DNA from: Octopus vulgaris
Lineage: Eukaryota
Assembly: GCA_951406725.2 (NCBI GenBank)
Contig: OX597824.1
Location: 64,542,001 to 64,606,000, forward strand
Direction: 5' to 3'
DNA length: 64,000 bases
In this document: positions 3,479 through 50,385 of the stretch, piece by piece
How positions within the stretch are numbered: the first letter of the stretch is position 1
Layout: every line of letters starts with the position of its first letter
The notes under the pieces: generated by a model
What the model was told of the DNA's origin: nothing
The model's database searches: none
The model's input: the letters and a program-made list of their open reading frames with translations, nothing else
Position numbers and translations under genes: made by a program

Positions 3479-3480
3479 TA

Positions 3481-6713: not shown

Positions 6714-6779
6714 GGTTTAAATGCCGTGTTGATAATGATGTTTTGCTAATTGTAACTCCTTGAAATATTTGTCTTTCAG

Positions 6780-7745
6780 GGGAAAATGAGGAGAATGCTA
6801 ATGAATTTTCTTCAGGATATTGGTATTAAGCCTGAAAGGGATGCTACATTTAATGGAAATACATCTACTTCAAATGAACTGAACAATTTTCCTAGCTATT
6901 CTGGTCTTAATTTATCTGAAAATCTCTCCAAAAGTATATCTTTAATGAATAAATCAGAAGAATGTCATCAGAAAAACTTGGAAAAATTGATGACATCCAT
7001 GTCAGATTTTAATGTTAGCCAAACAGAAGAAAATTTAGTGAAAGAAAATCCTCAGCCCGAAGTATCTCTTGCTAGGAAACAGAGACATCAGTCTTCGTAT
7101 TCCAAACAAAGAAATGATATAAATGTAGTGATTGCAAACCCCATGGATGAAGATACAGAAGTAAACAAGGTCACTCGTGATGAAAAACAAATAGTTAATC
7201 CAGATGGTGATAAGATGAACTTTACAAAAGATTGTGATAACAAACAGAACAATAAACCTGTACCACGACCTCGACGAAAGAACTCCTCACCAAATATATT
7301 GCAAGAATCAGCACATGTGCACATGACATCCATTGTGAAAACTTTAGATCCTGATATATATTGTGAAAAAGCAGCTGGAGATAGTATAGTTTCAAAGGAT
7401 TCATTTCAAGAAAATACAGCACCAGTAGACATTTCTTTGAAACCTGCGGATTATGTTTCAGAAATGAAGACATCAGAACCAGTTAAAACTGCAAACCATT
7501 TGACCATGTCCAATAGTTCAAACATGATGAACTTGGCTTCTGACAAATCTGATGGAAAATCACAATTAGAGCCAAATTCTGTCTATTCAGAATCTTCACC
7601 TAATCATGAACCCACAGCAAACCCCTCCCAAATTAACCAGTCTCCAGATTCACCAGTTAACAACCATTCTGATAATCAAGTTGATGAACAGAATGATTAT
7701 GATGAAGATAACTTTGATAGTGTTGACAGCGATAGTGATTTCTAA
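6780..7745 (+). CDS. Terminal exon of an unidentified gene (S/N/D-rich disordered C-terminus)
   Basis: gtctttcag|GKMRRMLMNFLQDIGIKPE...DSDSDF*; ~320 codons open in AT-rich DNA; AATAAA at ~8144. Confidence 0.8.
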   Translation, partial: GKMRRMLMNFLQDIGIKPERDATFNGNTSTSNELNNFPSYSGLNLSENLSKSISLMNKSEECHQKNLEKLMTSMSDFNVSQTEENLVKENPQPEVSLARKQRHQSSYSKQRNDINVVIANPMDEDTEVNKVTRDEKQIVNPDGDKMNFTKDCDNKQNNKPVPRPRRKNSSPNILQESAHVHMTSIVKTLDPDIYCEKAAGDSIVSKDSFQENTAPVDISLKPADYVSEMKTSEPVKTANHLTMSNSSNMMNLASDKSDGKSQLEPNSVYSESSPNHEPTANPSQINQSPDSPVNNHSDNQVDEQNDYDEDNFDSVDSDSDF

Positions 7746-11502: not shown

Positions 11503-12207
11503 TTAGAGAATTATACATATATGTTTTGATTTGCGATGTTTAGGTGTTGCTTTATTATCACAGGGATTTTCATCATTATTTGTGTTTGATGATGAGGAAT
11601 TATTTACATCTTCAGAACTTTTAACATCTTGAACAGGAATACTTTCAGTCTCTGGGATTATTCCTTCATTAAGTTCATTATTCTCATTCTCATTTTCATT
11701 TGGTAAATTTTCTGTGCTAGGCTCATTTCTTGCTTCCTCATTTAAAATATTTTCTGTGTCTTCATCATCTACAGAAATCTTGAGTGCCATGTCATCCATT
11801 GTTGTACTGGAACTCTTGTTGCCTGCCTCAGAGTTTTGGTTTGTCATTCCATTAGAAAATCTTTTTACACAGCACACACTAACTGAACTGTTACAATCCA
11901 ATCCATTATTATCATTTACTTCAGTACTGTCTTCTACTTTTCCATCAAATCCGTTCCTGCTTTCCAAGTTTTCCTCCACCAAGGTTATTTTAATTTGGGT
12001 ATCTTCTTCTTTTACTTGTACATTTTCTTCTTTTTCTTCTTCTTTCCTAATATTAGTTTCTTCTTTTTCATCTTCTTCCCCTTTCTTATTTACTTCTTTC
12101 TCATACTTATTATCTTCTTTTTCATCTTCTCTCTCTTTCTCTTCTTTCTTATTTTCTTCCTCATGAACATCATCATCACTTTTTTCTTTCTGCCATGTTA
12201 TAATACA
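11503..12207 (-). CDS. Terminal exon: E/K/N-rich disordered tail ending in polybasic + CaaX ([16 protein letters not shown])
   Basis: Lies within ORF 11503..12246; polypyrimidine tract + caag acceptor in phase 0 (an alternative in-frame ggcag acceptor lies 18 nt downstream). Confidence 0.8.
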   Translation of the reverse strand, partial: CIITWQKEKSDDDVHEEENKKEEKEREDEKEDNKYEKEVNKKGEEDEKEETNIRKEEEKEENVQVKEEDTQIKITLVEENLESRNGFDGKVEDSTEVNDNNGLDCNSSVSVCCVKRFSNGMTNQNSEAGNKSSSTTMDDMALKISVDDEDTENILNEEARNEPSTENLPNENENENNELNEGIIPETESIPVQDVKSSEDVNNSSSSNTNNDENPCDNKATPKHRKSKHICIIL

Positions 12208-13231
12208 CTTGAAAAAGAAAAAAATAAAAGAATTACAAATAACCACTCATTATTTAAAGAAAAATATTGACAAATTAATATTGATAATTAAATATATTTT
12301 AATTGTGCCAAAGTTCTGGCTGATATTAGGAATTGGTATTTTCCATGTCAAAATTGTTGTTGTTCATATTGTTCTTGTTTAGCCCCAGGTTGACTTTGAT
12401 TGAACAAACCTATAATTAAAGGTGCAGAAGAGTCAGAGGCATATGACATAGAAGAAAATTGGAAGTCCTTATGGGATAATCAACTGATGGCAACAGACAA
12501 AGTCTGTGGTTGGAGCAAAGATTCTGCCAGATCAAAGGTGATATGGTGGTGGAATAGTGAAGTCAACAGAGCCATAAAAGAAAAGCGATGGGTTTGGAAA
12601 GAATGGGAAAACTAATATTTCTGCCAATCTGACATCATAGACTGATAGCTTATATTATCAACCCCAGAAAGATGAAAGATAAAGATGACTTTGATAGGAT
12701 TTGAACTCAGAGGGTAAAGAGCCAAATTAGTACCTCAACACATTAAGGTAATTTGTCTATTGCCTTAATGACTCTGCCAACCTTATTACCTCATATACAT
12801 GTGACCACAGGGGAAAATATTAACAAGAAAGGTGAAGCTTACTTCAGGGAAGAAAGTACTGGAAAACCGTTTAGTTGAGGATTATTGAAATGCAAAAATA
12901 GGTTTAAAAATTGTTTTCATTAGTAGAAAGTTTCTTCACTTACTTCTTCTAAAGACAAAACTTGAGTCTCTTCTGGTTGTATGTTAAAAAGATTAACAAG
13001 ATTTCCCTTATTATCTGAAGATCTGAAAGAAAATAATTTAATGTAAACATGTGTGTTTTTTCTACATACATACGTACGTACACACACACACACACCACAC
13101 ACCACACACACACACACACACACTCAGTCTCTATTCACCAAATCCACCCACAAGACCCTGGTCAGCCTAAGGCTATAATAGAAGACACCTGCCCAAGGTG
13201 CCGTGCAGTAGGACTGAACCCAGAACCACAG

Positions 13232-13275
<44 letters not shown>

Positions 13276-14369
13276 TTTTACAACAAGAAATAACAACCAG
13301 ATTATCCTCGAAATGAAGAGTAATTCTTGTTGACTTAGTCCTAGCTGCACTGTATGTGAAAAATCCAATAGACTGCCATTTCTACCTCTCTACTGCTCTA
13401 ACAATAAATAAATACATAAATAAATATATAAAATAATTAATAAATCAATTAAATAAAAAGATTTATATCTTACTTTGCTGAAACTGAAGAAATAATATCT
13501 AAAGCTAATTTCTGCAAAGCCATATATTCAGGAATTTCATATGAATATTTTCCACATATTTCTGAAACAGTGACAGTAACCATACCCTTTGTATTTACAT
13601 ATTTACCCCTCTTTGTATGCCAGCAGCTGTCACTAAACACTACATTATAGGGTAAAATTTGAAAATATGAAAGGAATGTTGGTATTTTTTCAGTACAGAC
13701 AAAATGCAAAAGTCTCTGTTTCGATTTCCGTTGACGATTGAAAGCTATGTTTAGTTCCTCAAGAGATTTTGAAGATTCAAAATAATCATCACACACAAAC
13801 ATTACAATTACATCTGCTTCTTCAAGTAAAGCCAATCTGTCATGAATTGATGTGCTGAAGAGAAGGACCTGCATCTCTGAGAAAAGATCTTGAAGAATTG
13901 AAATCAAAATGGCAGCAAATTTCATATCTTGGGGTGCAAAACAAAAGAGTATTTTGCATGGTTTTTTATAAATATCATAATCCGCTTTAGCAGTTATCTT
14001 TTTTCCCTTGAGTTCGTAATTATCTTCAAGTTCAATTTGTCTGAGAAGTGATAATTGATCCAAGAGAGTAATATTTCCATTGTTCAACTGTGAAATAAAA
14101 GAAAAAGAGATAATTAAATTATAAATGTCTCGCTCTTCAATTAAAGGAAGGAAAATAATGATAATTTGCAATATCTTTATTGTTTATTCATTACTTGTTT
14201 CAGTCATTGGATTGCAACCATGCTGGGCACCAAATTGAAAGATTTAGACAAAGAAATCAACCCCAGTACTTTTTTAAAACCTGGTACTTATTCTATCAGT
14301 CACTTTTGCCAAAACATTAAGTTATGGGGACATAAACAAACCAAAATAAAGACACACATATATGTATAG

Positions 14370-14409
<40 letters not shown>

Positions 14410-16216
14410 TGAGAGAGAGATAGAGAGGGATAGAGAAATAGATACATATTTACAGACATACATGCACAAACACACACACACAGAATGGGTTCTTTCAATT
14501 TCTGTCTAGCAGATCCACTCACAAGGCTTTGGTTGATCTGGGGCTAAAGTAGAAGACATTTGCCCAAGATGCCCAATGACAGCCTTTAAGAAAGAGGGAA
14601 AAACCTCCTCATCGAAACAAAACTCTGGAAGAAAACCAAAAGTTTCAGATAGGGACCATCAGACTCTTATACAAATTGTTAGAAAGGATCACAAAAGCAC
14701 AGCTCCCAAAATTACTATAGAGCTTAATGACCACCTTCAGAACCTAGTTTCCACAAAAACTGTTTGCCAGGAGCTGCTCAAAGCTGGATTTCACAGGAGG
14801 GCTGCAATCAGAAAACTACTACTTTCGAAAACAAACTTTGCAAAATGTTTAGAGTGGAGTAAAAACCTACAGAATTGGTCCCTAGTGCAGTGGAAGAATG
14901 TTATTTTCTTGAACGAGTCATCCTTTACCTTATTTCCAACCACCGGCTGAGTATACGTGTGGAGACATCCAAAAGAAGCATTTGACCTAGACTGCCTTCT
15001 TCCAACTGTTAAGCATGAAGGAGGATCTGTGATGATCTGGGGGGGGGGGCTATAGTTTGGAAATCCACTGGCCCAATGGTTTCCTTTCGTGGCAGAATTA
15101 ATAGTCAAGATTATTTAAGCATTTTATGTGATCAAATTCATCCTATGGTTGGGGAACTGTTTTCAGAGGGAAACACAATCTTTCAGGATGATAATGCATC
15201 AATTCACACAGCTAAAGTTGTTACTGAATGGCACGAGGAACATTCTAGTGAAGTTGAACATCTTATCTGGCCACCACAGTCCCCAGATCTCACTATTATT
15301 GAACATTTATAGTACATTTTAGAAAAACAAGTAAGGAGTCGATATCCAAGAACTGAAGACTGTTTAAGCTGAAGAATGGACAAAAATTCCTTTGGAAACA
15401 ATTCAAACTTTGTATGAACCCATACCTCATAGAATTCAAGCTGTAATTACTGCCAAAGACGGTCCTACCCCATATTAAAATAAATTTGTTTAAAATTTTA
15501 AGGTGTTTCCATTATTTTGTCCAACCCCTGTATATAAAACAGGCTTTTTCTAGTTTCCCTCTACCAAATCTATTCACAAGTCTTTGGTCAGCTCAAGGCT
15601 ATAGTAGAAGACACTTGCCCAAGGTGCCAGAGAGTGGGACTGAACCCAGAACTGTGTGATTGGGAAGCAAGCTTCTTATCACACAGCCACATCTGTGCCT
15701 AAATGATGACTTTTTCACGGTTCCCAAGTGCCAAATTCCATTCACAGGGTATTGAACAACCTGAGGCTCCTCCAGCAGAAAACATTAAACCCATATGCCT
15801 TAATGAGAGATCAAATCTAGAACCACATAGTTGCAAAGCAAACTTCTTAACCACAAATGGTGTGTCTTTGTTGTCGTCATTGTTGACATCATCATCATCA
15901 TCGTTATCATCATAATCATTGTCACCATCACCACCACCATTGTTTTTTAGTTCACTTTGTCATGCTGGCACATTGGACAAGACACTTTTGAGGCAATATT
16001 TTACAGCTAAATGCCAATCCAAACACCAATTTTTTCAGTCTTCTTTCACATGTAGTGATAGTGTGCATATTCTAAAAATCTAGATTATATAAGAAGAGTA
16101 TGTGTGTGTGCATGCGTGCACAGGTGTACATGTGCATGTGTGTGTGTACATATCTATACATGTATATATATATATACATGTATATATATATATACATATA
16201 TATACATATATATATG

Positions 16217-16274
<58 letters not shown>

Positions 16275-16721
16275 CATATATATATATACATATATATGCA
16301 TGTATATATATACACATATATATACATATATATACATATATATATATGTAAGTATATATGTGTGTATTATATATATATATACTAGCACTATGTGCTAGTG
16401 CATGCATATACAGCTGCGTGCGTGCACACATACACGCGAGTACTGTCCAAATCTCCGACCAATCACATACAGCTAGCTGGCATTCAATTGGCATATCAAG
16501 TTTCAGGCATTTTGATTGGGTTTAGGATAGAAAATTCACAAAAAATTCACTTCAATTGATTTTTTAATGGCTTTGTTGGGTGACTGGGGAAATGTAAAGA
16601 TGTGCACAACCAACCTTGAACGGTTTTGAATGACCATAGAAAGTGCGAGCCCTCTAACTGAAAAAATTGTGGATTTGAATAAAGGACACGCACGCAGGCA
16701 TTTTGCCGTTTATATATATAG

Positions 16722-16774
<53 letters not shown>

Positions 16775-19700
16775 TGTAAATATATACATATATATACACA
16801 CACACATATATACATACATGTACATATATACATATATAAATATATATATTATATGTATGAAGGTATATGCAAGTGAAGTGTGTGTGTGCATGCATGTGTG
16901 TGTGGGCATGCGTGTGTGTGCATGTGTGTGTATGTGTGCTTGTGTGTGTGAGAGAGAGAGAAAGAGAGAGAGGAAGAGAGAGAGAAAGAGATATGACACA
17001 CTTACTTTGCTTTTACTCGTCATCCAACTAAATTCATGTTGCAAAGTTTGGTCTTTGTAGCATTTATTTAGAAGAGGTGATAAGCAGCTCAGAACAGGAA
17101 CCAAACAATCTCCCCGGGCATCTATCATATGTAGAGGACCAAACCACTGAGGTGTTGACGGCACATCATCAATGCAGACAGGTACCAAAACCATAGGATT
17201 TGTCTGAAATGAACAATTAAATTGATTAATTCATTAACATTCAAGTGAAATGGTCATCAGAAGCATAGTACATGTTACAAAGTCATGCTCACTTGCAAGT
17301 GATGGTTTTGGTATGTCTATATTTTTTCTGAAAAATCCTCATAAGAGATTGATATATACAACTCAAATTATAAACTGACAGTAATTAAGAGTTCAGTTAA
17401 TAATAGATCGTTAAACTCTAACGTAATTAAATTGCAGTAAATCCAAGTGGGATGACATGCAGGTATATACATAATCAGCTAAAATGATCTTTAAGAGCAA
17501 ACATATTTGGCAGAAATGGAGAAAAGCATATATTTTACATATAGTTCACACTTTAATTGTATTCAATAGCTGTTTCATAATGATAAACATCATTGAATGT
17601 ATAATTACATAATTGTCATACACAATTAATTGATTTGAGTTAAATTAAATTAATTAGTTCGTTTTTGGATTTGGTTTGCAAGATTCTTTATATGAGTTCG
17701 TGTGTTGAAGCATATTCTATTGTGTCTGGGGAGAGTCATTTTCTTTTTGTGCCTTATAATGTAACACACGCACCGGTAAAAATTCCACTTATTTCTTATT
17801 TTTATTTTCCTAAAATTTTCGTTGCATCTTGCAACCTTTCCAACAGTCTTGACTCTGTCCGTTATTTACACTGCGTTCCTTTTTGTTTGTGCGCATGTGT
17901 GCGGGTCAGTGTGTTTGTGTGTGCCTATGCATGCATGAACGTATGTATGTGTGTATGTATGTATGCATGTGTATGTATGTATATATGTGTGTGTATGCAT
18001 ATGTATATATGTATGTATGTGTGTGCATCTGTATGTATCCTATAAATTACCATTATGTAAGTATACTTTTTCAGAAACGAATTTTCAAAGTGATGTCTGT
18101 AAATCAGAGTATTTTTCTCAACTTGAACATAGCAATGACACATTTCAATGGGTGTTCTCTTCAACAGTCTTCAAGTGATATTCTTGAGCTAGGCTAAGGA
18201 TTAAGTCTGAAACTTATTTTATCAACTGGATATAAGGTCCTAACCACTAGCCTGTTGTCCTGAAGGACAATTGAGTTATTCTTTTAGTCTCAAACACTTG
18301 TATTTATATTTTAGAGTTGAGTGTGAGGATGTTGGGTGTTTGTTGTGTTTTTGTTACTGCTCTGGTTAAACCTTCTTAGACATACTACATGTGGGATGAA
18401 CCAATTATGGAGCTTGTATGTGGTCATTTGGTCAGATAGAAATAGCAATCAAATGTTCTTTGAATCTCATTCTTCTATCTAAAGAAAAAAAATGGATCTG
18501 TTGGACAATGCAAACCTAGATACGCAATGTCTGACAAAAAATATGGAATGATCATTTCTGGTATGTGTTTGATCAAAGGTAGGATCTCTGATCAAGAATC
18601 ATCTAGAGATAAATAGCACTAACACATAAGGAATTTGGAAAACTCCAAGAAGTCATATTCTTAGTGAGACCAAGTACATTATTCCAGTAATGGCAGACTT
18701 CCCAAAGATTCTGCTTTGTATTCTTTTAGTTTTTCATCTTACACATTCCCCTTTTTAGTGTAGCCAAATCTTCCTCAACAAATTTTCACTCCTAAATTTT
18801 TGGCTTACACAGAAATAGCAGGTGGAATATTTAAAAGGTGACCATAAAATAACCAGATATAAATAGAACAGTAGGATGTGACAAAGTAACACATTTTTGG
18901 TTAAATTACCTTACAAGTACATGCAGGCAATTGGGAAAATATTCAACAATTTACTGAGAGACAAACAAAACAAAACAAAAAAAAAACATCTCAACTTAGT
19001 CATCAGCACTGAGGAAGTATCAAACTTCAAAATTGCAGAACCATACATAACCTCTTTGTCTATGATGTACAAAATCTTAATGTTAACTTTAGTGCAATAA
19101 AAAGCATACTTCAAAAACAGAAAAGCTGCTGTAAGGACTTATGTGGATGTAACGATGAGTCATTATTTAACAAATTCATAACTGAAGAACTCAAAAATCT
19201 ATCTGATCCTTTCACTTAGACACTTCTGATGAAATTGTGGTAATAATTACTGATATTATTACTATAACTATACATGCTATATTTACTACTGTTATTATTA
19301 CTACAGCTGGAGGCACAATGGCCCAGTGGCTAGGGCAGTGGACTTGCAGTTGTAGGGTCACGGTTTCAATTCCCAGACCGGGCGTTGTGAGTGTTTATTG
19401 AGCAAAAATACCTGAAAGCTCCACGAGGCTCTGGCAAGGGGTGGTGGTGAACCTTGCTGTACTCTTTTGCCACAACTTTCTCTCACTCTTTCTTCTGTAG
19501 ACCTGCTCACTTAGCCAGCAGAGTGGCATCATTTGAAGGCTAAAACAATGCAAAGCGCATTGTGACCAGTGATGTGTAGCAACATCTTTTTTTTTTTTTG
19601 ATAGCCTGGTCGATCACATGATCACGTGAATATTACTACAGACAGTTGAAAACGAGGCTTAGAAGTGGTATCTAAAACATGGCTGTCTGCTGACTGGCAA

Positions 19701-22587
19701 GGTTCATGACTAAAGCTACAACTGATGGGTACTGTCCTCTTGTTCTTAGAAAAGTAAAGTCTATTTACAGCCAATCTTTCCAGCCTTCTGTATCAATGAA
19801 ATTGAGAATTGTTACACTACGACAGAAATATTTTACAGATATGTTTCAATTAATTTAAAAGATAATGAAGAATTGTAAGCATTTAATTATTAACCAATCT
19901 GTCTTTATTTTTATGCCTGGTGTTTGAAATCTAACTTTAAAAAATAAGATTCATTAAATAAAGTTTTGATAGATGGTTTTAATTTAAATATAGGTTTCAA
20001 ATTCTGGCACAAGGCTAGCAAGTTCAGAGCAGCGGTGTAAGTTGATTACACCAACTCCTGTGCTTAACTGGTACTTATTTTATCAACCCCAAAAGGACGA
20101 ACGGCAAAGTCGATATCAGCGGAATTAGAACTCAGAACATGAAATTTCACCCAGCATGTGAACAATTCTTTCAGCTTACAGCTTTGTTTTAATTTAAATA
20201 TCAACATTTTAAAATGTCAGTGTTTGTATCACCAAAACATAAGACAATTTTGTGTTAGGGTGGGTAGGTTGGTTATCAAAAGGGTTAAACAGTAGAACAA
20301 AAAAAACTTAAAAACAAAATTAAAAAAATTAATCACAAGGGTTTTCTCACTCTTTCTTCAGAGATACTCAAAGCAATGGCAATACTGAATTCTTCTTGGC
20401 ACATAAGAGATTCGAAGTATGCTGGTGCAATGAGGATGACACAGCATTTAGAACATTCCAAAGCTTTGTAGATGGATTGCTGCCAATCACTACCTGAAAT
20501 ATAATAAAGAACAAATATGTATTTATTGATTACACTAGCATGATAAATAGAGACAATTGGTTGACTTTTAAAGAACAGAGATATCTATTGATGGATTATA
20601 AATTCTGTTGAGTTTAGGAGTTGTGCTGTTCACTCATCTTCAAAAGGCTCTCATAGGGCAGAATAAGAGTAACTACAACTAGGTATTAAACCTAGATCAG
20701 CAGCTTGGTGCACTGGGAGTTCAACGACTGCCTCTGACACTACCATAGATATGTCATTGAGAGAACTGCTACATGGTCACTTGATCTACATGAAACAACA
20801 GTCAAATCTCCATCAAATCACCTTTAAACTAGAAGACATGTTGAATAATATAATCTTAGATAACACATCTGATAAAGTGTCTAATTAACAGTCATTAAAA
20901 TGCTGGATAGAATTCTCTGTAACCCAAGTTCAAATCTGTCCGAGGACAACATTGCCCTTCATCCTTTCAGAGTCATTAAACAAATCCCACTCCAAAGTTG
21001 TGGATCAGCAGATCTGTAAGAATGTTAGACTGGGATGCCTTATAGTAGTTGTTCTGGATCGTTGTCGTCATCGTCGTCGTCATCATCATCACCATCAGCA
21101 GCAGCAGCAACAGCACCACCACCACCAACAACAACAACACTGACAATGTCATTAGTAGTGTCTACTCGAGAGGGGAAGAACTTATCCAAAGTTGTTATAC
21201 ATTAATGGCACACCATCTGTTTGCACAACTCAATATAGAGAGTGAACTTATTATGAAGTCCTCTTGTAATTTTAATGTTATGTTCACATTTAGAATTGCA
21301 GACCTTCAGCTATAATATGGCCAATCCTTTAACCATATTCTTTTCCTCAGTCAACAGGAAGTGGTGGAGCTGCATTATCAACTTCTTGCCCTGCAGTTTA
21401 CTCTTATTTTTTATCAACATCAGCTCCACATTAGATAAAACTTATTAAATCATGTTTTATGCAAGTTCAAACCAGTCATATCCAACCCAAATATTCTACC
21501 TGTTTTATGTTAAAACCAGTGAGATCAAGTCTCTCACACCTACCCTGTAATGTTATTCTAAAAGTAAACAGCTACATCAGTGAAATCCTGAAACTATGAG
21601 ATATCATCATTATTATCATCATCATCATCATCATTGTCATCGTCATTTAACGTCCTCCTTCCATGCTGGCATGGGTTGTACAGTTTGACAGGAGCTGGCC
21701 AGGCAAAAGAGCCTGCACAATGCTTCTGTGTCTGCTTTGGCATGGTTTTTATGGCTGGATGCCCTTTTGAATGCCAACCACTTTACAGTGTGGACTGGGT
21801 GCTTTTTAAGTGGCACCTGCACTAGCAGGGTCACCAAGTAACTTTGCAAGAAAAGGAATTTTTGAGAGAGGAGGGGGAGTTGGAGGAGATGATCTTGTGT
21901 CAGATGATGAAAGGTTAGAGTGTGACAGAGAGACAGAAATAAATGTACATGGTTACCCAGCCAGAGAGAGAGAGAGAGAGAGAGAGGGAGAAGAAGAGAG
22001 GGAAAGAAAGAAAGTGAGAGTTAACAAAAATGAAGGCGGCAGAAATACATGATTAATTCAAAGCAAGTGAAGCCACATGGTTTAGTGGTTAGGGTATTTG
22101 GCTTACAATCGTAAGGTCATCATGAGTCCAATTCCCATTGATGCATTGTGTTCTTGAGCAAAACACTTTATTTCACATTGCTCCAGTCCACTCACCTCGC
22201 AAAAATGAGTAGTACCTGTATTTCAAAGGGCAAGCCTTGTCACACTCTGTATCACGCTGAATCTCCCTGAGAGCTACATTAAGTGTACACATGTCTGTGG
22301 AATACTCAGCCACCTGATCATTAATTTCATGAACAGGTTGTTCCATTGATCAGATCAACTGGAACCCTCATTGTCATAAACAACAGAGTAAGTGCCAATT
22401 CAAAGCAATATGAATGAATAAACAGGCATAGGAGTGGCTGTGTGGTATGTAGCTTGCTTACGAACCACATGGTTCCGGGTTCAGTCCCACTACGTGGCAC
22501 CTTGGGCAAGTGTCTTCTACTATAGCCTCGGGCCGACCAAAGCCTTGTGAGTAGATTTGGTAGACAGAAACTAAAAGAAGCCCGTCG

Positions 22588-22620
<33 letters not shown>

Positions 22621-25600
22621 ATGTTTGTGTGTCTGTGTTTGTCTCCCCAACATCGCTTGACAACCGATGCTGGTGTGTTTACGTCCTCATAACTTAGCGG
22701 TTCGGCAAAAGAGACTGATAGAATAAGTACTAGGCATACAAAGAATAAGTCCTGGGGTCGATTTGCTCAACTAAAGGCGGTGCTCCAGCATGGCCACAGT
22801 CAAATGACTGAAACAAGTAAAAGAGTATTAAATCTAATTGAGTATTCTGAATGCTAAATGGTTAATCATACCTGTCTCCAATTCCAATTTATCGTAAAAT
22901 ATCTTCAAGTCACTATTGTGTTCAGTCAAAATTTCATATACTACTTTCATTTCTTCTGTGTTTTTTGTAGGGTAAGACACAAAAATATCATATGTTGTTT
23001 TCTTAGATGTTTGTGCTTGAGCAGTTGTGGGACGCAGTAATGATGGAAGTAGCTTCTTATTGATATCCGCAGAAACACTTCGAAACTTTTCTTTAATATT
23101 TTCATTTTCATTTAATCTAAAGTAAAAAAAAAAAAAAGGTAAAAAACAGCAAGTTCCAATTGAAGAAATAGCCCAGCTATAGGAACCCCATCATATGAGG
23201 GGTAACTTTGGCAGTATACTTTTACCACCATGAGTAATATCAAGAAATATGACACATACTATAATTATAATTCTACTTTAATGAAATTTGTGGGTGCTTA
23301 TCCAAAAGGGTGAAATTAATACTAACTTTAAAAAGAAAAAATATTTATTACCCTAAAATAGAACTAAATAAAACAATTTCTCATTTGTATAATTCCTCCT
23401 GTAACTATTCTGTCATTTACTCTCTCTTTCTCTTTCCTCTTCCTCCTCCTCTTTTGTCTCTGTGATTTTCTCTCTTAATGTGTGTATATGTGCATGTGTG
23501 TGTGTAGCATTCTTCTACTAATTACCTACCACCAAGCCTAGTATGTGAACTCATCCTGTACCCCTTATGTTAACTCTTTCTGTATCACTCTTTCACTTAC
23601 TGTCCACTTTCTCTCAATGATGTAAAGTATGATTGGTAAAATCAACCACCCAACATTTATATCAGTTATTATTATACAGATATTTATGAGCTGGCAGTAT
23701 CATTAGCATCCAGGCAAAATGCTTAGTGACATTTTATCCATCTTACATTCTGAGTTCAAATTCCACTGCGATCAACTTTACCTTTCATCCTTTGGGGGTC
23801 AATAAATTAAGCACTAGTGAAACACTGGGGTTGATATAATCAACTAGTCCCTTCCCAAAAATTTCAGGCCTTTGCCTTTAGTAAAAAAGATTATTATATT
23901 GATGTTTTAAATACAGAAACACAAAAATAAAAATGTGTACAAGAAGAAACTTACCGACAATCCATATATTGTATGTTACTTATAACTGGGGGTAGATTTT
24001 CCATTGTCTCAGTATACAGGGGAACCAAAATAATATCTTCAGCTTGTCGTCTATAGCAGAGAGCCATATTGAATTCATCTTGGCAGGATTTGGAACTTAA
24101 GTAGGATGTAGTTAAAATTATAACAATGCTGTTGGTAAAGAAGAATGAAGGATTTTAGATAATTCACTTCTGTGAATGATGATTTCTTTACAAGCTAACA
24201 AAGAAACCTCTAGATGGCCACTCAACTATCTAGAAATATCAACCAAATCTCTCTCAAATCAGATTTTCCTCCTCCTTGTCATCATTTTAATGTCCACTTT
24301 TCCAAGCTTCATGGGTTAGACAGAGTTTACTGAGGCAGATTTTCTCTGGTCAAGAACCCTTGCTTTCAACAACCCTTAATCATTTCTAAGCAAGGTTGTA
24401 CTTCTCTATAGCCAAACATGTTTGCACAGAATACTGGAAATGAGATAACACTGCTTGTATGAGAGTGACACTCATTTACAATTATTATGTGATGTCAAGA
24501 GAAGGCAACACATAGACACACACACACATTCTTTTATTCTTTTACTTATTTCAGTTATTTGATTGTGGCCGTGTTGGAGCACTGCCTTAAAAGGATATTT
24601 AGGAAGGGTATCCAGCCATAGAAATCATGCCAAATCAGACTGGAATCTGGTGCAGCCCCTCAGCTTGCCATCCCTGATCAAATTGTCCAACCCATGCCAG
24701 CATGGAAAACAGATGTTAACTGATGATGATGACGATGATGATGATGATGATGATGATGACGTTGTTGTTGTTGTTGTTCACATTATTGTTGCTGTTGTTG
24801 TTTAGCCCCAAGTAAGCTCTGATTGAGCACATTTATGATCAAAGTCATTCAATCCATGACCATCCCATTCTTTTATTTGTCTAGGACTAACATTGTCTAA
24901 TGTATCCTTTATTTAAAGATGGCAGGATTTGATATGAGGGAGATTTGGCTACAATTTCTAGCAGGTAGAATGTTCTTGTAAAGGCTCTCTCAATAACTGT
25001 CCATAGTACATAGCAGAAATGGTAACACTTTGCAGTATTGAAGTTCATACAATTACATTATGAGTTGTAATGCCACATGGGTTCCTTCTATTTTCTATCT
25101 TACCAGTGTCCAATGTATTAAGTAATGATGTTTATTAAACTGACCACCAAAATTTGTGGCCTTGCTTTGTATCAGCAAAAAATAACATTATATTAAATAT
25201 TTAATACTGAGAAAAATAAGAAAAATAGAATTACCACTTGCATCCAAACATACAAGAGTATATTTTTTCAGGCCAAACATCTCCGTCAACTTTTATCCTT
25301 TTATTGAAAATACTTATGCTTGGATTATTCTTTTCCAATGAAGCTTTTAACAAATTTGCCTTCTTAGAATCTGTATTGCAGTAGGAAATATACACATCGT
25401 TCACATGATTTTTTTTGGCAATCTGTAAAAAAAATTAAAAAGTAGTCATAACAACAATCATTGTTTAAAGTAAGCCATCATGCTTGATACCTCCTAGACA
25501 AGTATTGGCTTGGCAGACTGCATTAGCTGTGGGCTTAAGATGTAAAACTGGCACTTCATCAGTTACGCTGATGAAGGCTTCTGTCGGTTGGTCTAACCAA

Positions 25601-28600
25601 TGGAACAGCCTGCTCGTGAAATTAACATGCAAGGGACTGAGCACTCCACAGACATGCATACTCTTGATGTAGTTCCCAGAGGGATTCAGTGTGACACAGA
25701 ACATGAGAAGGCTGGCCTTTGAAATACAGGAACCACTCATTTTTGCCAGCTGAGTATACTGGAGCATCATGAAATGAAGTTTATTGCTTAAGGACACAAT
25801 GACACAATGCACTGCCAGTAATCAAACTCATGACTTTACGATCATTGGCTGAATATCCCAATCACTTAGTCACACACGTTCACCGATGTGAAAGAATGGG
25901 TGGCAATTCAACCTGTATACCTTTGAGAAAAGCTCCAAACTGATGACACAGATGAGCTTTTGTCAGGGAACTAAGTAGGAGTTATTCATTAATCTGATGA
26001 TGCAAGAAGGGAGAATTCATTGTTTCAACGAAGAGTACGTAGTAGCCATTAGAGCATCATTGGTGATACACAATAGTAGGAAGGAAGGCTGTGTGCTAAA
26101 CTGAAAATGACCTCGCTAATGATAATGTTTCCATATTTACATATGTGTGGAGGCTCAATGGCCCAGTGGTTAGGGAAGCGGACTTGCAGTTGGAGGATCA
26201 CGGTTTCGATTCCCAGACCGGGCGTTGTGTGTGTTTATTGAGCGAAAACACCTAAAAGCTCCATGAGGCTCCAGTCGGGGTGGGGTGGCACCCCTGTTGT
26301 ACTCTTTCGCTCCAACTTTCTCTCACTCTTTCTTCCTGTTTCTTGAGTAACACTGCGATGGACTGGCATCTCATCCAGCTGGGGGGAACACATATGCCAC
26401 AGAAACTGGGAAACCAGGTCCATGAGCCTGGCTAGGCTTGAAAAGAGCGCATAAATAAATAAATTTACATATGCACTATGAATTGAAATGAAAAATATAC
26501 ATATTATTATGTTTGTGATAATTTAAAGTTTTCACTGAGTAATATAGAAATATTGTTTCAGTTAATTGTATGATAATTGTTCAGAATTGTGACAGGCAAA
26601 TCAAGTACAAAAACATCACATATAGAACTGAGTGACAGGGTTCTGTGTAGTGTCTGAGGTGGTTCTCACATGGAGTTTTATATCTCACTTTCTAGAACCT
26701 AACAATTTAATGCCACCACTGCTGCCAGATGATTTTCATCTACTGCTGATATGTCTCGGTGTTTTTTAATATTATACATCTATAACAGTTGTTTTCTCCA
26801 GACTAATACTACAGTTTATGAGGCTTTCAATGATGTATCTACTTTAAATATGATTCAACGGTTACTATTTTGAACCAATATTGCTTCTGCCACTAATAAC
26901 AAATAATGTAAAAATGTAAGAAAGAGCTATACTACCTTTGAAAGGGTAGATTTTTCCCAGGTTTTCTTCAGCACTTTAAACCTCTCAAGACAATTTTTAT
27001 TGGAATTGCTAATTTCATTTATATTACTAGTGTAAAGTACAATCTTGAAGCTTTTCAAAGGAAGACCAATTTTCATCCAGTTACAAGCTGACTCAACCAT
27101 TGTGTTAAGAACTGGAATATAACCAAAGCCCTACAAAATTAAGAAAAAGAAAAAAAGAGAAATAGAAATATTTTTGTTTTGTTTCCAGCAATTAAGCACC
27201 ATCTTTAGGTGAAGGTATAGCTATGCGGTGAAGAAGTTTGCTCCCAATCAAAGTTCTTTTATGACACATTCTGTGACCTCGTGTGCGTGCGTGTGTGTGT
27301 TTGTGTGTCTCTCTCTCTCTCTCTTCTGTTTTTGATTGTTTAAATTCTTCCTCTGAAGAAGGAGCTGGTTTCTAACAAAGATAGAAAGCTCCATCTTTGG
27401 AATGTAGATAACAAAAACAATGTCACATTTTAAACTTTAGAAAAGTCTTGCATAGTTTTAGTGTTCAGCTTACAGATTGTATTTGTAATGTGTGAATCAG
27501 TTGGTTGATTTCTGTTTCTGAAAACTCAAGATTATCTAGACTACTTACAAAACCAAGTGCTCCAGCTATTATTCATATAAATGTAAATTTGTAATCCGGA
27601 TATAAAATCTGGAGGTTTTGATGCAGTTGTTCATAATTATCTTCTTTTTCTCTGCTTTTCAAAGATATTAACATCAGCTGGACAGCTAACCTCTGTGACA
27701 GCACATACTTTTTCTTGTCTGTCCGAAACAACAATATCCAGCCTGTTATGTTTACATTTGACAGATGTTTTGATGGGAATATTCCACCAGTATTTCTTGT
27801 GTTGATGTTTATGTACATATTCAAATACAGGGAAATACTCTTTATTTATTCCAGGACTGTCTTTTTCCCAAATGGCATTATATATTGGTTTCTGCAACGG
27901 CATGTCACATAGGGAGGTAGTACCTTGATGACAATTTTGGGAGCTGCTAATCACATGTGTGATGTCGTCCACAGAAATATTACATAATCTACATTTACAG
28001 TTGCATCTTGGAACTCCAAGAGCTTCACTGTATCTTTTGTTGATTAGGTGTTTAGCAGTAATCTCCTGTTCTTGGATTGCAAATGCATAGCCTTCAAAGT
28101 ATGGTGTGATGTAGCAGTTGCGAGTCCAAGAGAGGCTTCATGTCAATGTCTCTATCTTATTGAAGTCTTCAAGTAACATACCTATGCATGTTTTTTTTTT
28201 TGTTTTTTTTTTGTATACTTGAGCACTTCCCCTCCAGTCTTCTTTGAAGTAAGCTAAGTAAGCTAGTCTGGCTGATTTGGGGTTGTATGGGAGCTCATCG
28301 GGGGAAGAGTACTTCCTGAAGAGTTCATTTCCAACGCGTAGGATGTTCCCTTCACTTTCCAGCACTAAATTAATGTATTTATTTTGTTGCTGTTGTTTAA
28401 CAAGTGCTGTCTGAGAGAGACTGTGTAACATTCAAAGACTATCTGCACAGAGCACAAGCCCCCTACTTCCTTTATCTCTTCTTAGGCAGAGCCTGTCAAC
28501 ATCACTATTTTTGTAGAGATTTCCAGTTGATGTTAGAATCTTGTGGGTGTTAATGTCTATGAAGTGGATTTCTTCTACAGACCAGTCAAGTATCCCAAAA

Positions 28601-29774
28601 GTTGGAATCAGCACTGGTACTGCAAATGCATTGTGGGATATTGTCTTGTTGTAAAAGGAGAGCTCAGACTGCCATATTTTTCTTAGTCTGGTGTAATATT
28701 CTTGGGTCACTATCTTTATTCACAGTACCTTGGTATGATATATTTTCATCAATGCCTAGGTACCTGTAGCAGTCTTTGTGTGAGACAAGAAAGATAGTAA
28801 GATTATTTTGTGTCTGGGAGATTATCTTTCCCTGTTCAACAATCAAATAATATTTCTTCTGGCCAAATTCCACTCCTATGTCAATTGAAAATGTTATTAA
28901 TTCCAGTTGATTTTTTGGCATTGTTAACATTTTAGCATAAATCCACAAAGAAATCATGGGTTACATTAATATCTCTTGATGTTGCAGACCCTAGCATGTA
29001 GTCATTTGTTTTTTATATCAGGAATGATAATGGGATGGATGGATGTATGTATGCATGCATGCATGTTTATGTGTTTATGTCACCTTGTCTTGACATGACT
29101 AATAAATAATTGCCACTGTCATACAAGCAGTGTCATTCATTTCCGATATTCTGTAAGAATATACGTATGTTCAAGGCAAAACATGACTTTGCTTGGAAAC
29201 AGGTAAAGGTTGGTGACAGGAAGAACATCCAGCTGTAAAATATTTGCCTAAATAAACTCCATCCAACCCATGCAAGCATGGGAAAGTGGACACTAAAATG
29301 ATGATGAAGCTAACAATATATGTGGCTGTGTGGAGATGCAGGCAAAGCTGTGTGGTAGGAAGCTTGCTTCCCAACCACAGTTAGTCTAACTGTGTGGTAC
29401 CTTGGGCAAGTGTCTTCTACTATAGCCTAGGGCTGACCAAAGCCTTGTGAGTGGATTTGGTAGACAGAAACTGAAAGAAGCCTGCTGTATGTGTGTGTGT
29501 CTTTGTGTCTGTGTTTGTTCCCCAACCATCACTTGACAACCAATGCTGGTGTATTTATGTCCCAGTAACTTAGTGGTTCAGCAAAAAAGGCCGATAGAAT
29601 AAGTACTAGGCTTACAAAAAATAAGTCCTGGGTTCGATTTTTTTCAACTAAAATCCTTTAAGGCAGCACTGCAGCATGGCCACAGTCAAATGGCTGAAGT
29701 AAGTAAAAGAATAAAAGAAAAGAATATGTAAGTGTGTGTGTGTGTTTGTGTGTGTGTATGTGTGTGTGTGTGTG

Positions 29775-29805
<31 letters not shown>

Positions 29806-30733
29806 TCTTATTTTGACATCATGTGATGACTGTAAATGTGTAGCACCATCATACAAGCAATATTATTTGTTTCCAATCTTCCATGAAAACAGGTCTTCCT
29901 TTTTATCTACCACCAACAATGAGAGTCATTAAAGCAGAACAGAGCTACTTGAAACATCTCTCATTTGTGAGCTGCATGGTTACTTTGTTAGTGCTGATAC
30001 CATGAATAAAACACCCAGTACACTCAGTAGACTGGTTACTGTTAGCAAGGACATCTAGCTATAGAAACCATTCCAAAATAGACACTTTTAGCATGGTGCT
30101 GTCTTTAGACGTATTGGATATTTTTGAACTGTCCAACTCATGTTAGCATGTTGATGATGATGATGATAGTTAATTAATCCAAGTATTCCATAGAGAATTA
30201 TGTAAGAATACAAAAACTGAATAAAAAGATACTCACTTGGTTTCCAGTACCAAGTAAAGGAGTTATTACTGTTGTGTCTTGAGAATTGAATATTGGCATA
30301 AAACCTCGAAACATATCTCCGATTTGATCATAAATACTACTGCCTAGGTTTCTGTAACATAAAACATGAAATTAATGAAGTTCAATAAAAATAGAAATAT
30401 TTAAAACAATGCCAACTATGAAGGAACTCTGAAAGGATGAAAGGTAAAGTTGACCAAGTGGCATTTGAACTCAGAATGTAGACAAAATGCGTAGCAGTGT
30501 TTTGTCCAGCATGCTAATGATTGTGCCAGCTTGCCACCTTAATAATAATAATAATAATGATGATGATTTCAAATTTTGGCACAAGGCCAGCAATTTCATG
30601 GGAGTGGGTAAGTTGATTACATTGACTTTAATACTCAACTGTTGCTTATTTTATTGAGCCCCCAAAAGGATGAGAGGCAAAGTCAACCTCAGCAGAATCT
30701 GAACTCAGAACATAGAGATGGACTAAATGCCAC

Positions 30734-30800
<67 letters not shown>

Positions 30801-32772
30801 AAGAAGAAGAAGAAGAAGAAGAAGAAGAAGAAGAAGAAGAAGAAGAAGAAGGAGGAGGAGGAGGAGGAGGAGGAGGAGGAGGAGGAGGGTTTAAAATTTT
30901 GGTATATGTTTGCACCCACCCTAGTATTCAGAATATTTGCTGTAGCCCATCTTTTATACCAAAACAAAATAATGTACATAACACTTCCAATCAGTTAAGA
31001 TCAGAAGCCATGAGGGCCAGCGCCTATCAGAAGCCATATTGTTATTATCATCATCATCATCATCATTATTATTATTATTATTGAGAAAAATCCTTGAGGC
31101 AGTGTGGTGAGAAGTTTGTCTCCCAGCCACATGGTTCCAGGTTCATTCCCACTATCTGGGACCTTGGGCAAGTGTTCCGTTACTGATTGAACTTAGCAAT
31201 TTGGTAAAAGAGACTAATAGAATAAGTATCAGGCTTTAGAAAAACATAAGTACTGAGGGAAATTCATTCGACTAAATTCAGCATTGCTGCAGTCCAATGA
31301 TTGAAACAAGTAAAAGATAAAAGATATATTATTATCATTTTTTTCTAAGTCCAGCAATTTTGAGGGGGTGGGGAGTAGAGGATACCATCAATCCAAGTAT
31401 CGTACTTGTTTTTTTATCAACTATGATGAGTGGGAGTGAAGGGCAAAGCTGACCAGGGCAGGATAGAAGAAAAGGATAAAAACTTAATACAAAAAGTAAT
31501 ATTACCTTTCAAAACATGCAAGTCTTGAAAAAGGAATATCTTCTGGTAATGGTTTGGATAACCAACAAGAAAAATATTTCCTTAAATCTAATTCTTTATC
31601 CGCAGCAAGCCTAGAAACATCAACATTTAGATTTTTGTTCAGTGCTTGGATTACAGTTTTACTCGTAGTGTTGTAATTATCTGAAATAAAAGAACATTTG
31701 GGTATAAATTATGAAAGTTGTACAGTTTAAGAGTATATAAAAAGGGGAAACTGAAGAGCAGAATGACAAACAAGTATAGGCTTAGCTGTGTGGTTAAGAA
31801 GTTTGCTTCTCAACCATATGGTTTTAGGTTCAATGCCACAACATGGCACCTCAGACAAGTGTCTTCTGCTGTAGCTATGGGGTGACCACAGCTTGAAGAT
31901 ACAGGCATGGCTGTATGGTTAAGGAAGTTTGCTATGTGACCATGTGGTTTTGGATTCAGTTCCACAGTGTGAAATTTTCTGCAAGTGTCTTCTACTATAA
32001 GCCCTGCACTGACCAAAGCCTGTAGGCCTATGGCTAAGGAAGTTTGCTTCCCAACCATGTGGTTTTGGGTTCAGTCCCACAGCATGGCACACAATGATTG
32101 ATCAATCATACAACACATAACAACTGATCAGTGACAAAAAGTAAAACAACATCTAATGATTGATAAATGATACAAAATCAATGGTTGGTCAATGATTGAT
32201 CAGTGACACAATACTCCATGAATGATCAATGATATAACACATAGTTACAGAGCAATGATACAACATACAATAGACTGATTAGAGATATACTATATAATGT
32301 CTAATGAATGATACAACACAGACTGTGACTGATCCAAAATTCAACATAAAATCACTGATCAATGACACAGACATGATGACTGATCAATGATAAAACATTT
32401 AATGATTGATCAATCATATAACAATGTAACAACACACATTGATTTATCAGTGAGACAATACACAATGATAGATCAATATTTGATTAATGATACAACATTC
32501 ACAATGAAAAAAACAGCAATACAACACACTGACTCCTGTAGCAAGGTTTTTAATGTTTTTTAACCATCTCGTTGCTTAATTTTCAGCCAATTTTAATGTG
32601 AATATTTAATGTTTAGATACTTACTAGGGAAAGCTGACACGATGAGCAAATCAACTTTGTCATTCATCTCAAGACTTGTGATGTCTCCCAGAAGAAGCTC
32701 AATTGTACAAGTACCTTGGATGGTTGAAAGGGACAAAGTTTCAATTGTCTTTAAAACCATTGTTGCAGTTTC
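11503..32772 (-). CDS. Spliced gene: macrodomain-like + 3x TIR + acidic linker + CaaX protein (~988-993 aa; 12 coding exons listed below)
   Basis: Exons 32625-32772, 31506-31680, 30237-30351, 26936-27130, 25235-25422, 23955-24128, 22872-23116, 20351-20493, 17006-17203, 13474-14087, 12944-13022 and 11503-12207. All introns are GT..AG and the phases chain (1,2,0,0,2,2,1,0,0,2,0) into one open frame of 2979 nt ending in TAA at 11503. There is an in-frame ATG at 32760. Confidence 0.88.
12944..13022 (-). CDS. Short penultimate exon
   Basis: tttcag|(K)[26 protein letters not shown]|gtaagt; phase 2 to phase 0. Confidence 0.75.
13474..14087 (-). CDS. Exon: divergent TIR domain 3
   Basis: Lies within ORF 13470..14171: [10 protein letters not shown]...[29 protein letters not shown]...[10 protein letters not shown]; tcacag acceptor and AA|gtaaga donor. 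Confidence 0.85.
14575..15532 (+). mobile_element. Tc1-like transposon remnant
   Basis: [34 protein letters not shown] and WPPQSPDL motifs, with stops; the terminus ccattattttgtccaacccctg-ta also occurs at ~48860-48882. Confidence 0.88.
16382..16722 (-). mobile_element. Short Helitron-like element between (TA)n microsatellites
   Basis: CTAG|T at 16382 and a TCTATATATATAAA 5' end at ~16722. Confidence 0.5.
17006..17203 (-). CDS. Exon: end of TIR domain 2
   Basis: tttcag|[66 protein letters not shown]|gtaagt. Confidence 0.88.
19309..19630 (+). mobile_element. tRNA-derived SINE family C (second copy at 26148-26462)
   Basis: GGAGGCACAATGGCCCAGTGGCTAGGGCAG...GGTTTCAATTCCC tRNA-like head; two homologous copies. 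Confidence 0.8.
20351..20493 (-). CDS. Exon: TIR domain 2 core
   Basis: tttcag|[48 protein letters not shown]|gtgaga. Confidence 0.9.
22072..22400 (+). mobile_element. tRNA-derived SINE family D (also ~25545-25885(-) and 49325-49595(+))
   Basis: TGGTTTAGTGGTTAGGG head and a TGTG(T/C)CTTGAGCAA.ACACTT CORE-like segment; three copies. Confidence 0.7.
22872..23116 (-). CDS. Exon: linker + start of TIR domain 2
   Basis: ctttag|[82 protein letters not shown]|gtatga; YDIFVSY is TIR box 1. Confidence 0.9.
23955..24128 (-). CDS. Exon: TIR domain 1, C-terminal half
   Basis: caacag|[58 protein letters not shown]|gtaagt; YLSSxxCxxE is the TIR alphaC motif. Confidence 0.9.
25235..25422 (-). CDS. Exon: TIR domain 1, N-terminal half
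   Basis: ttacag|[62 protein letters not shown]|gtaatt; DVYISY is TIR box 1. Confidence 0.9.
26936..27130 (-). CDS. Exon: end of macrodomain-like region
   Basis: ttgtag|[65 protein letters not shown]|gtagt; 65 codons, phase 0-0. Confidence 0.88.
27410..28990 (-). mobile_element. Degenerate R4/Dong-like non-LTR retrotransposon (RT C-terminus + restriction-like endonuclease)
   Basis: [35 protein letters not shown], a [13 protein letters not shown] zinc knuckle and [14 protein letters not shown]; many frameshifts. Confidence 0.8.
30237..30351 (-). CDS. Exon: macrodomain-like region (phosphate-binding loop)
   Basis: ttacag|[39 protein letters not shown]|gtgagt; PLLGTGNQG matches the macrodomain PxIGTGxxG motif. 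Confidence 0.9.
30734..30888. repeat. Compound microsatellite (AAT)n(AAG)n(GAG)n
   Basis: Read directly from the sequence. Confidence 0.95.
31506..31680 (-). CDS. Exon: macrodomain-like region
   Basis: tttcag|[58 protein letters not shown]|gtaat; phase 1 to phase 2. Confidence 0.9.
32090..32530. repeat. Degenerate short-period tandem repeat (caatgattgatcaatgatacaaca-like)
   Basis: Recurrent tgatcaatgat/acaacac motifs. Confidence 0.6.
32625..32772 (-). CDS. Exon: start of macrodomain-like region
   Basis: ttattcag|[49 protein letters not shown]|gtaagt; carries the macrodomain GDIT motif. Confidence 0.9.
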
Positions 32773-33489
32773 CTGAATAACGGCAAAAAAAAAAAAGAGA
32801 GAGAGATTTTAATTAATAGGGCAGTGACACAACATGTTTAGGATTTGGAGATAAATCTCTCAACATCAGCAATAGAAACAGTACCCGCTACCACCACCAT
32901 TGCTGCTGCCATCACTGCTGCCACCACCGCCACCATCACCATCATCAACATCATCATCATCATCACCACCACTGCCACCACCACCACTGCCACCTCCACC
33001 ACTACCACCTCCACCACTACCATCACCATCATCATCATCATCATTATTATTACAGTTATCATCACCACCACCTCCACCATTATCCCCACTACCATCATTA
33101 CCATCATTGCCATTGTTGTTGTTGCAATTACCATCATCACTACTGCCACTGTCACTGCCATCATCATCTTCATTGTAAACATTATCATCACCACCATCAT
33201 CATCATTAACATCGTTTTAACATCCACTTCTCCATACTTGTATGAGTCAGATGGAATTCATTGAGGCAGATTTCCTATGGTTAGATGCCTTTCCTGTTGT
33301 CAACCCTCACTTGTCACCAAGCAAGGTAATATTCCCCACCCCTGCCACCATGGCCAGACATGTTTTCACAAAAGATTAGAAACAAATGACTTGTATGACA
33401 GTGACACTTATTTACAACTATCATGTAATGTCAAGACAAGGATACACACACATACAAATCTTCACACATACACATGCAGAAACACACAC

Positions 33490-46100: not shown

Positions 46101-46165
46101 GCCAGATAAAGGCACAGGTGAGAGAGTATATATCAAATATAATTAAAAACAGAACACAAAGGATA

Positions 46166-49943: not shown

Positions 49944-50385
49944 GGCTATAATAGAAGACACTTGCCCAAGGTACCATGCAGTGGGACTGAACTCCAAACC
50001 ATGTGGCTGGGAAGCTGGTAAGTGGGAAGGCTGCACCAGACTCCAGTCTGATTTGGCATGGTTTTCTACAGTTGGATGCCCTTCCCTTGGATGGCTATAG
50101 TAGAAGACACTTGCCCAAGGTACCATGCAGTGGGACTGAACACCAAACTGTGTGGCTGGGAAGCTGGTAAGTGGGAAGGCTGCACCAGACTCCAGTCTGA
50201 TTTGGCATGGTTTTCTACAGTTGGATGCCCTTCCCTTGGATGGCTATATTAGAAGACACTTGCCCAAGGTACCATGCAGTGGGACTGAACTCCAAACTAT
50301 GTGGCTGTGAAGCTGGTAAGTGGGAAGGCTGCACCAGACTCCAGTCTGATTTGGCATGGTTTTCTACAGTTGGATGCCCTTCCCA
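49944..50385. repeat. Tandem triplication of a 149-bp chimeric SINE/RTE-tail unit
   Basis: The anchor ggctata occurs at 49944, 50093 and 50242. Confidence 0.9.

Follow-up and report, generated by a model that had tools for sequence, protein, structure and literature searches.

An octopus gene that joins a macrodomain to three TIR domains and ends in a CaaX box raises the question of what such a protein does in an animal, and to which kind of signalling system it belongs. The gene lies on the minus strand of contig OX597824.1 of Octopus vulgaris (assembly GCA_951406725.2), within a stretch of 64,000 nucleotides (forward-strand positions 64,542,001 to 64,606,000) that we call the window and whose numbering is used here. 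The original prediction took the protein for a possible single-chain version of type II Thoeris, in which the TIRs write a signal that the macrodomain reads. Our comparisons point to a different arrangement, in which the protein would be a macrodomain-gated TIR NADase, an ADP-ribose-gated switch at the membrane and the animal form of a one-gene Macro-TIR module of bacteria. By analogy with other sensor-TIR fusions, we give this reading a rough probability of 0.45.

Reading the minus strand and joining splice sites gave 12 coding exons, in phase, from 32760 to 11503. All 11 introns are GT-AG, and the coding sequence of 2967 nt translates into 988 aa with a single terminal stop, a product identical to the annotated Octopus vulgaris protein CAI9730352.1 (988/988 residues), so that the 12-exon model first proposed is confirmed. 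Over 766 aa the product shares 93% of its residues with LOC106867918 of O. bimaculoides, a species in which an 861-aa model lacks the CaaX end and a 1026-aa model has it; identity to Argonauta is 59%. Among 24 listed sequencing runs, 19 contain exon 10, and none of these is recorded as RNA. In a cuttlefish cluster, 8 of the 15 members are unbroken 758-aa open reading frames (ORFs) on contigs of 2.5-2.9 kb, which we infer to be spliced mRNA and which would thus lend indirect support to a fused macrodomain and TIR transcript. The gene is laid out as follows:

32761 to 32774, minus strand: 5′ untranslated region (UTR), 12 nt before the ATG, preceded by the splice acceptor, whose AG is at 32774-32773; read from the sequence.
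32625 to 32760, minus strand: exon 1, aa 1-45, macrodomain N-terminus with GDIT (D26) and VSAFP (S42).
31506 to 31680, minus strand: exon 2, aa 46-103, mid-macrodomain with the family-specific DLR..SCWLS insert and the invariant E103.
30237 to 30351, minus strand: exon 3, aa 104-142, macrodomain with the diphosphate-loop-like PLLGTGNQ.
26936 to 27130, minus strand: exon 4, aa 143-207, macrodomain end.
25235 to 25422, minus strand: exon 5, aa 208-269, first half of TIR1.
23955 to 24128, minus strand: exon 6, aa 270-327, second half of TIR1, E288 at the catalytic-type position.
22872 to 23116, minus strand: exon 7, aa 328-409, linker and first half of TIR2.
20351 to 20493, minus strand: exon 8, aa 410-457, TIR2 core, E444 at the catalytic-type position.
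17006 to 17203, minus strand: exon 9, aa 458-523, TIR2 end and linker.
13474 to 14087, minus strand: exon 10, aa 524-727, divergent TIR3 (565-682, E634, shortened BB-loop region) and the helix after it.
12944 to 13022, minus strand: exon 11, aa 728-754, linker.
11503 to 12207, minus strand: exon 12, aa 755-988 and stop; acidic, predicted disordered tail, basic patch and CaaX end.
11506 to 11517, minus strand: CaaX box CIIL, a likely geranylgeranylation signal.

Position 32772 is the first base past the splice acceptor, which stands 12 nt above the ATG, and a non-coding 5′ UTR exon therefore probably lies further upstream. At the other end, a candidate poly(A) hexamer is found at window 11355 (minus strand), ~150 nt downstream of the stop codon.

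Structure modelling gives residues 1-203 a macrodomain fold, as had been proposed from motifs. A macrodomain-only model (85 sequences) of these residues reached a predicted local distance difference test (pLDDT) score of 97 and a predicted template modelling (pTM) score of 0.93, and in a wide structure search it matched the second macrodomain of PARP9 and Af1521 at Z 16.8 (root mean square deviation, rmsd, 2.8-3.0 over ~180 residues); the EcThsA macrodomain followed at rank 19, with Z 12.6 and rmsd 3.3 over 171 residues. The top Foldseek match of a full-length model was macroH2A1.1 (E 1e-7). When a 47-sequence profile was compared with the PDB, all 33 rows were by title macrodomain entries or macrodomain-based constructs, the best being PARP14 (E 1.4e-6), with Af1521 at E 8e-4 and no ThsA entry among the 33. 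PARP9/14/15, macroH2A and Af1521 are thus the nearest macrodomain folds, and the macro-PARPs also couple ADP-ribose readers to an NAD-using domain; identity to the octopus domain is only 11-14%, however, the partner there is a PARP or histone fold and not a TIR, and the octopus family has an insert and invariant residues of its own.

A profile search of 1.84 billion representatives matched 1,317 clusters at E<=0.001, with 264 reaching 1e-30, and the best 150 were inspected. For the family counts below, 122 representatives are labelled non-eukaryotic (a label presumed for unnamed ones). This macrodomain family was without a model in the copies of Pfam, NCBIfam and PADLOC that were scanned: Pfam macro families matched none of eight family members over their first 203 residues, none of eight macrodomains matched PF20016, the ThsA-type macrodomain, at E<=5, and PADLOC matched none of three macro-only proteins. 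In an Atlas search the leads all scored <0.9, and the ThsA_Macro cluster stood at rank 23 with 0.82.

The motifs GDIT (residue 25) and LLGTGNQG (residue 136) lie in the two stretches of the octopus protein that align to Af1521 and PARP14, the second being diphosphate-loop-like, with P135 and G140 conserved. In the macrodomain alignment, 32/32 eukaryotic rows and 115/120 of the others have the adenine-binding-type D26; S42, W85 and E103 occur in 120/120 non-eukaryotic rows, and neither group shows more than rare variation at D26, S42, Y48, W85, E103 or G140. Such constancy bears on a reading in which the macrodomain would be a built-in brake, a hydrolase or sink for the TIR product or for ADP-ribose adducts, making the protein a toxin with its antidote or a repair pair. 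S42, Y48, W85 and E103 are conserved in animals and bacteria beyond what binding alone may need, the macrodomain is the best-conserved part of the protein between phyla (44-50% identity vs 26-38% for the TIRs), and DarTG (7omu) and Mfs1 (8rsn) are examples of a macrodomain paired with an NAD-consuming enzyme. Nevertheless, NAAN with a Gly-rich loop 1, the motif of MacroD-type hydrolases, is absent from the alignments, where VSAFP..Y takes its place, and we regard this reading as unlikely.

Pfam, run on the two closest full-length orthologues, matched TIR_2 over three stretches, and no other model passed its cut-off; ThsB_TIR stayed below (19.4 vs 21.2 bits), and LRR, SAM, ARM and death domains were not found in these two proteins. 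A clear transmembrane (TM) helix was not found in the octopus protein, in which 19-residue hydropathy peaks at 1.61. The predicted set of three TIRs, acidic linker and CaaX end, free of all these other elements, agrees with the Pfam matches, the hydropathy profile, the 28% acidic tail and its CIIL ending. Identity as a TLR, MyD88 or SARM1 was rejected, as Pfam finds TIR families only in the two orthologues. The NADase of SARM1 is regulated by metabolites. SARM1 is an animal TIR protein of bacterial affinity, placed in Clade 8 of a TIR atlas (PMC13142454), in which the orthologue from octopus is marked 'Not in supported Clade'; unlike SARM1, the octopus protein has no ARM or SAM.

The position of the putative catalytic Glu (in αC) was assigned via the CxxE motif, which we take to mark it in TIRs, and the counts exclude four animal rows that were broken or nearly identical to others. 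All three octopus TIRs carry Glu at this position (E288, E444 and E634), which makes an NAD+/ADP-ribose role, as originally suggested, plausible. Across the family the residue is found in 91/93 bacterial TIRs, 25/26 TIR2, 23/26 TIR3 and 5/26 TIR1 sequences, and Gln replaces it in TIR1 of 16 of the 26 animal rows. Four of the five TIR1 rows with Glu are cephalopod or group with cephalopods, and cnidarian rows show Gln; cephalopods may have regained the Glu. TIR2 is closest to the bacterial TIR, with a mean identity of 30.6% vs 27.6% and 20.4% for the other two, and TIR3 has no Cys and a shortened BB-loop region. In a TIR tree each position groups by itself across phyla (SH-aLRT, a likelihood-ratio branch test, 93, 97 and 100), and the triplication is therefore old; with few columns and no outside TIRs, the tree says no more than that the three positions are separate groups.

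The same residues can be read in favour of a non-enzymatic, membrane-anchored TIR scaffold that would tune TLR/MyD88 signalling in animals and whose macrodomain would bring it to ADP-ribosylated proteins. The Glu of TIR1 is lost in 21/26 animals and TIR3 is degenerate, the top structural relatives of the macrodomain include the non-catalytic readers macroH2A and PARP9/14, and ecTIR-DC proteins have been hypothesised to be adaptors or regulators (PMC6321704). TIR2, however, retains Ser (26/26), Cys (26/26) and Glu (25/26) while being the TIR nearest to the bacterial one, and bacteria have no TLR pathway, so that the ancestral job would have been a different one. We consider a pure scaffold quite unlikely.

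A direct Macro-TIR homologue exists in bacteria, a stronger link than the original prediction had guessed. Relatives at 36-41% identity are encoded in nine GTDB genomes, which by record title belong to six phyla; most are stand-alone Macro-TIR genes of 340-370 aa with one TIR, and 25 metagenome loci add more. A full TIR directly follows the macrodomain in 93 of the 122 non-eukaryote-labelled representatives, 64 of the 122 are minimal proteins (<=440 aa), and 19, probably fragments in many cases, lack a downstream TIR. None of the 64 minimal proteins has a TM-like segment (peak 19-residue hydropathy above 1.9). PADLOC and NCBIfam match the TIR part alone, far below family level.

The cassette is also found fused to other domains. 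Among 42 proteins selected for a survey of fusions, two of which later proved eukaryotic, the partners were Hsp70 (4), type VI secretion system (T6SS) sheath (4), kinase (3), NUDIX (2), glycosyltransferase (2), CHAT (2), pYEATS (1) and extra TIRs, a variety that resembles mobile effector cassettes and suggests that Macro-TIR may behave as one. The Hsp70 ATPase domain is joined to Macro-TIR in several bacteria (L018:517-2688; P0035, P0038 and P0053). Three proteins (P0058, P0076 and P0085) combine fused T6SS VipA-VipB sheath domains with Macro-TIR, two of them with an additional TIR, and are possibly decoys or sensors for contractile sheaths. In Zoogloea (L003:5839-7181) a frame change inside the TIR splits the Macro-TIR gene in the assembly.

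Near-identical Chloroflexi Macro-TIR proteins lie in differing gene contexts. In a Bacteroidota locus (L005:2-12546), a STAND NTPase, a TPR-S-patatin-Macro-TIR fusion, a subtilase, a gene of metallo-beta-lactamase fold and a caspase stand together as a candidate for an undescribed defence system. Over the 20 bacterial loci no recurring partner gene was found beside Macro-TIR, and no cognate signal-making enzyme was found among their 98 neighbour ORFs.

This gene context matters for the arrangement first proposed, in which the TIRs would respond to a trigger by producing a messenger derived from ADP-ribose, and the macrodomain would read this messenger and switch on a downstream partner. In type II Thoeris, a TIR makes His-ADP-ribose (His-ADPR), which binds the macrodomain of a pore-forming membrane protein (10.64898/2025.12.03.692087); the ligands described for this macrodomain are His-ADPR, ADPR or IAD (10.1101/2024.01.03.573942; PMC11204291). 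Both systems use a TIR and a macrodomain, here united in one chain, and the EcThsA macrodomain is a fold match (Z 12.6). In contrast, ThsA and ThsB are two genes with a TM pore, whereas the octopus protein is one chain with no pore or other effector; its macrodomain is of another family, outside PF20016 and nearer to PARP9/Af1521, its TIRs are of TIR_2 type, and no partner gene is conserved in the 20 bacterial loci. Membership in type II Thoeris was rejected for want of a ThsA-type macrodomain, a membrane pore and a partner gene; the specific analogy is not supported, and a chain that both writes and reads the signal seems to us fairly unlikely. The suggestion that prenylation stands in for TM helices was likewise abandoned, as the Thoeris pore is the effector, for which a prenyl anchor cannot substitute, and the bacterial form has neither TM segment nor CaaX.

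A closer parallel is offered by nucleotide-gated TIR NADases with sensor and TIR in one chain, described for Cat1 (PMC12162218) and TIR-STING (PMC9402430). Like TIR-STING, TIR-SAVED and Cat1 (CARF-TIR), Macro-TIR joins a nucleotide-binding-type domain to a catalytic-type TIR, a fusion of sensor-type domain and TIR that occurs in the same 93/122 non-eukaryote-labelled representatives and in all full-length animal matches. Like Macro-TIR, TIR-STING is shared by bacteria and invertebrates (PDB 6wt6). The sensor, however, is here a macrodomain and not STING, SAVED or CARF, no cyclase or other partner is conserved beside bacterial Macro-TIR in the 20 loci, and in animals the chain carries three TIRs and ends in a CaaX box.

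Under the macrodomain-gated reading, the ligand of the macrodomain would be of ADP-ribose type, either free or carried by a protein or nucleic acid as a modification, and its binding would cluster the TIRs. TIR2, whose catalytic Glu is kept across animals, would then cleave NAD+, with TIR1 and TIR3 acting mainly as assembly partners, and the loss of NAD+ or the product would lead to defence or cell death. A possible amplification is feedback, the product of the protein's own TIR rebinding the macrodomain. Prenylation, an animal addition, would concentrate the protein at the inner face of the membrane. Wiring from sensor to TIR fits better than wiring from TIR to sensor because the TIR is the sole effector-like part of the chain.

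The tail (755-988) contains 28% Asp/Glu, is predicted to be disordered in the O. bimaculoides model and ends in a basic patch and CIIL. The enzyme prefers a final Leu in the CaaX box for geranylgeranylation, and CIIL is a likely signal of that kind. CaaX ends were found in 16/28 three-TIR animal proteins, carried by molluscs, a brachiopod, a nemertean, echinoderms and a hemichordate, vs 1/122 others. By tail length they occur in 14/14 proteins with tails >=140 aa and in 2/14 with shorter ones (a cut-off set after viewing the data). The prenylation signal thus appears conserved in long-tailed orthologues and is putatively an animal addition; many short-tailed proteins may be truncated annotations, yet the cuttlefish ORFs also lack it.

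The survey of the architecture that had been called for shows Macro-TIR-TIR-TIR orthologues in placozoans, cnidarians, spiralians and ambulacrarians, beside the bacterial homologue. Among animals, the named members belong to cephalopods, bivalves, gastropods, a brachiopod, a nemertean, a flatworm, echinoderms, hemichordates and a coral (a fragment); there were no chordates or ecdysozoans among the named matches, for which 30 clusters were looked up from the best 150 of 1,317. A motif search of Supplementary Table 1 of PMC13142454 adds Nematostella, two jellyfish, Capitella, an oyster, three sea-urchin paralogues and a Trichoplax member with two macrodomains and three TIRs; that table annotates the rows of this family with TIRs only, as 'Not in supported Clade'. 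In a macrodomain tree of 86 rows, which samples 48 of the 120 other rows and omits seven named eukaryotic ones (near-duplicates, fragments and one split domain), 29 animal rows fall on one side of a branch (99/94), with a topology that follows the species tree. Adjoining the animals on a long branch is a haptophyte protein (Pavlovales, P0122) with a macrodomain and two TIR-like parts. As the spread is patchy, we infer a bacterial donor; both trees are unrooted, and the direction of transfer is not read from them.

Whether the module is poorly described, as first claimed, has a divided answer. The family is probably the catalogued ecTIR-DC 8, by a match of length and species and not of sequence: the Trichoplax H2 member in the PMC13142454 table has 1,082 aa, and Fig. 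S1 of PMC6321704 gives the same length for a Trichoplax H2 protein under the label ecTIR-DC 8, showing TIR domains only, with no macrodomain, CaaX or bacterial counterpart. A description of the Macro-TIR fusion was not found in a literature search, nor in the available parts of PMC9503650, PMC7075850, PMC8195603, PMC9334734, PMC6836662 and 10.64898/2026.10.19.760177; Gerdol 2017 or Burroughs and Aravind 2020 may describe it. We conclude that the protein family is real and ancient, probably catalogued yet undescribed, with a new sensor-TIR pairing. The class ecTIR-DC 8 was reportedly defined by Gerdol et al. in 2017.

Several observations weigh against a macrodomain-gated defence enzyme. A conserved Glu is common in TIRs that have not been shown to be enzymes, and from the alignment the invariant E103 and S42 could equally mark a hydrolase. 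A macrodomain search of the O. vulgaris genome gave four matches, all exons of this one locus; the gene is single-copy, and a single copy with strong conservation would contrast with many fast-evolving immune receptors. The 680-aa O. sinensis annotation begins within TIR1 and has no macrodomain, and CaaX is missing in 12/14 short-tailed animal proteins, including the cuttlefish ORFs on transcript-sized contigs. Finally, PADLOC matched 12 of the 98 heuristically called neighbour ORFs, in 7 of the 20 bacterial loci, and several of these matches are generic (ATPase, kinase, oxidase), with the Bacteroidota locus the only coherent defence cluster; defence-island enrichment is thus weak and uncontrolled.

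A wider scenario is doubtful: an undescribed bacterial one-gene defence module would sense ADP-ribosylation (by phage or toxin enzymes, for example) and cut NAD+, and animals would have taken it up before placozoans, cnidarians and bilaterians diverged. Animals would then have tripled its TIR, given it a lipid anchor and retained it for immunity or cell death as an enzyme triggered by ADP-ribose. Next to SARM1 it would form another NADase lineage, apparently absent from model insects, worms and vertebrates. Few animal TIRs are known as enzymes, SARM1 having been the sole one before Raw according to a 2026 abstract (PMC13455253). The Macro-TIR family offers an ancient and widespread candidate for an animal TIR enzyme with a built-in ADP-ribose-type sensor, and its 340-aa bacterial twin makes the function cheap to test. 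If correct, this would give bacterial defence a new sensor-TIR pairing, animals a new enzyme-type immune protein, and bacterial immunity another case of being carried into animals.

The rest of the window holds what we take to be transposon remnants. Two lie within the gene, broken Tc1/mariner-like transposase pieces in intron 9 (14537-15309, plus strand) and pieces of a broken non-LTR retrotransposon in intron 3 (27640-28960, minus strand). Outside it are, presumably, a Pif1-like helicase piece (2200-2748, minus strand), an endonuclease-type piece (39028-39855, plus strand), a Penelope-like reverse transcriptase (RT) with a GIY-YIG piece (44353-46142, minus strand) and a LINE RT (58100-59869, minus strand). 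Tandem arrays occupy 3479-4627 (160-bp unit, 7.1 copies, 96%) and 49944-50384 (149-bp unit, 3 copies, 97%). At 6756-7742 (plus strand), an open frame of 329 aa, rich in Ser, Asn and Asp and without a Pfam hit, resembles a long exon of a convergent neighbour gene.

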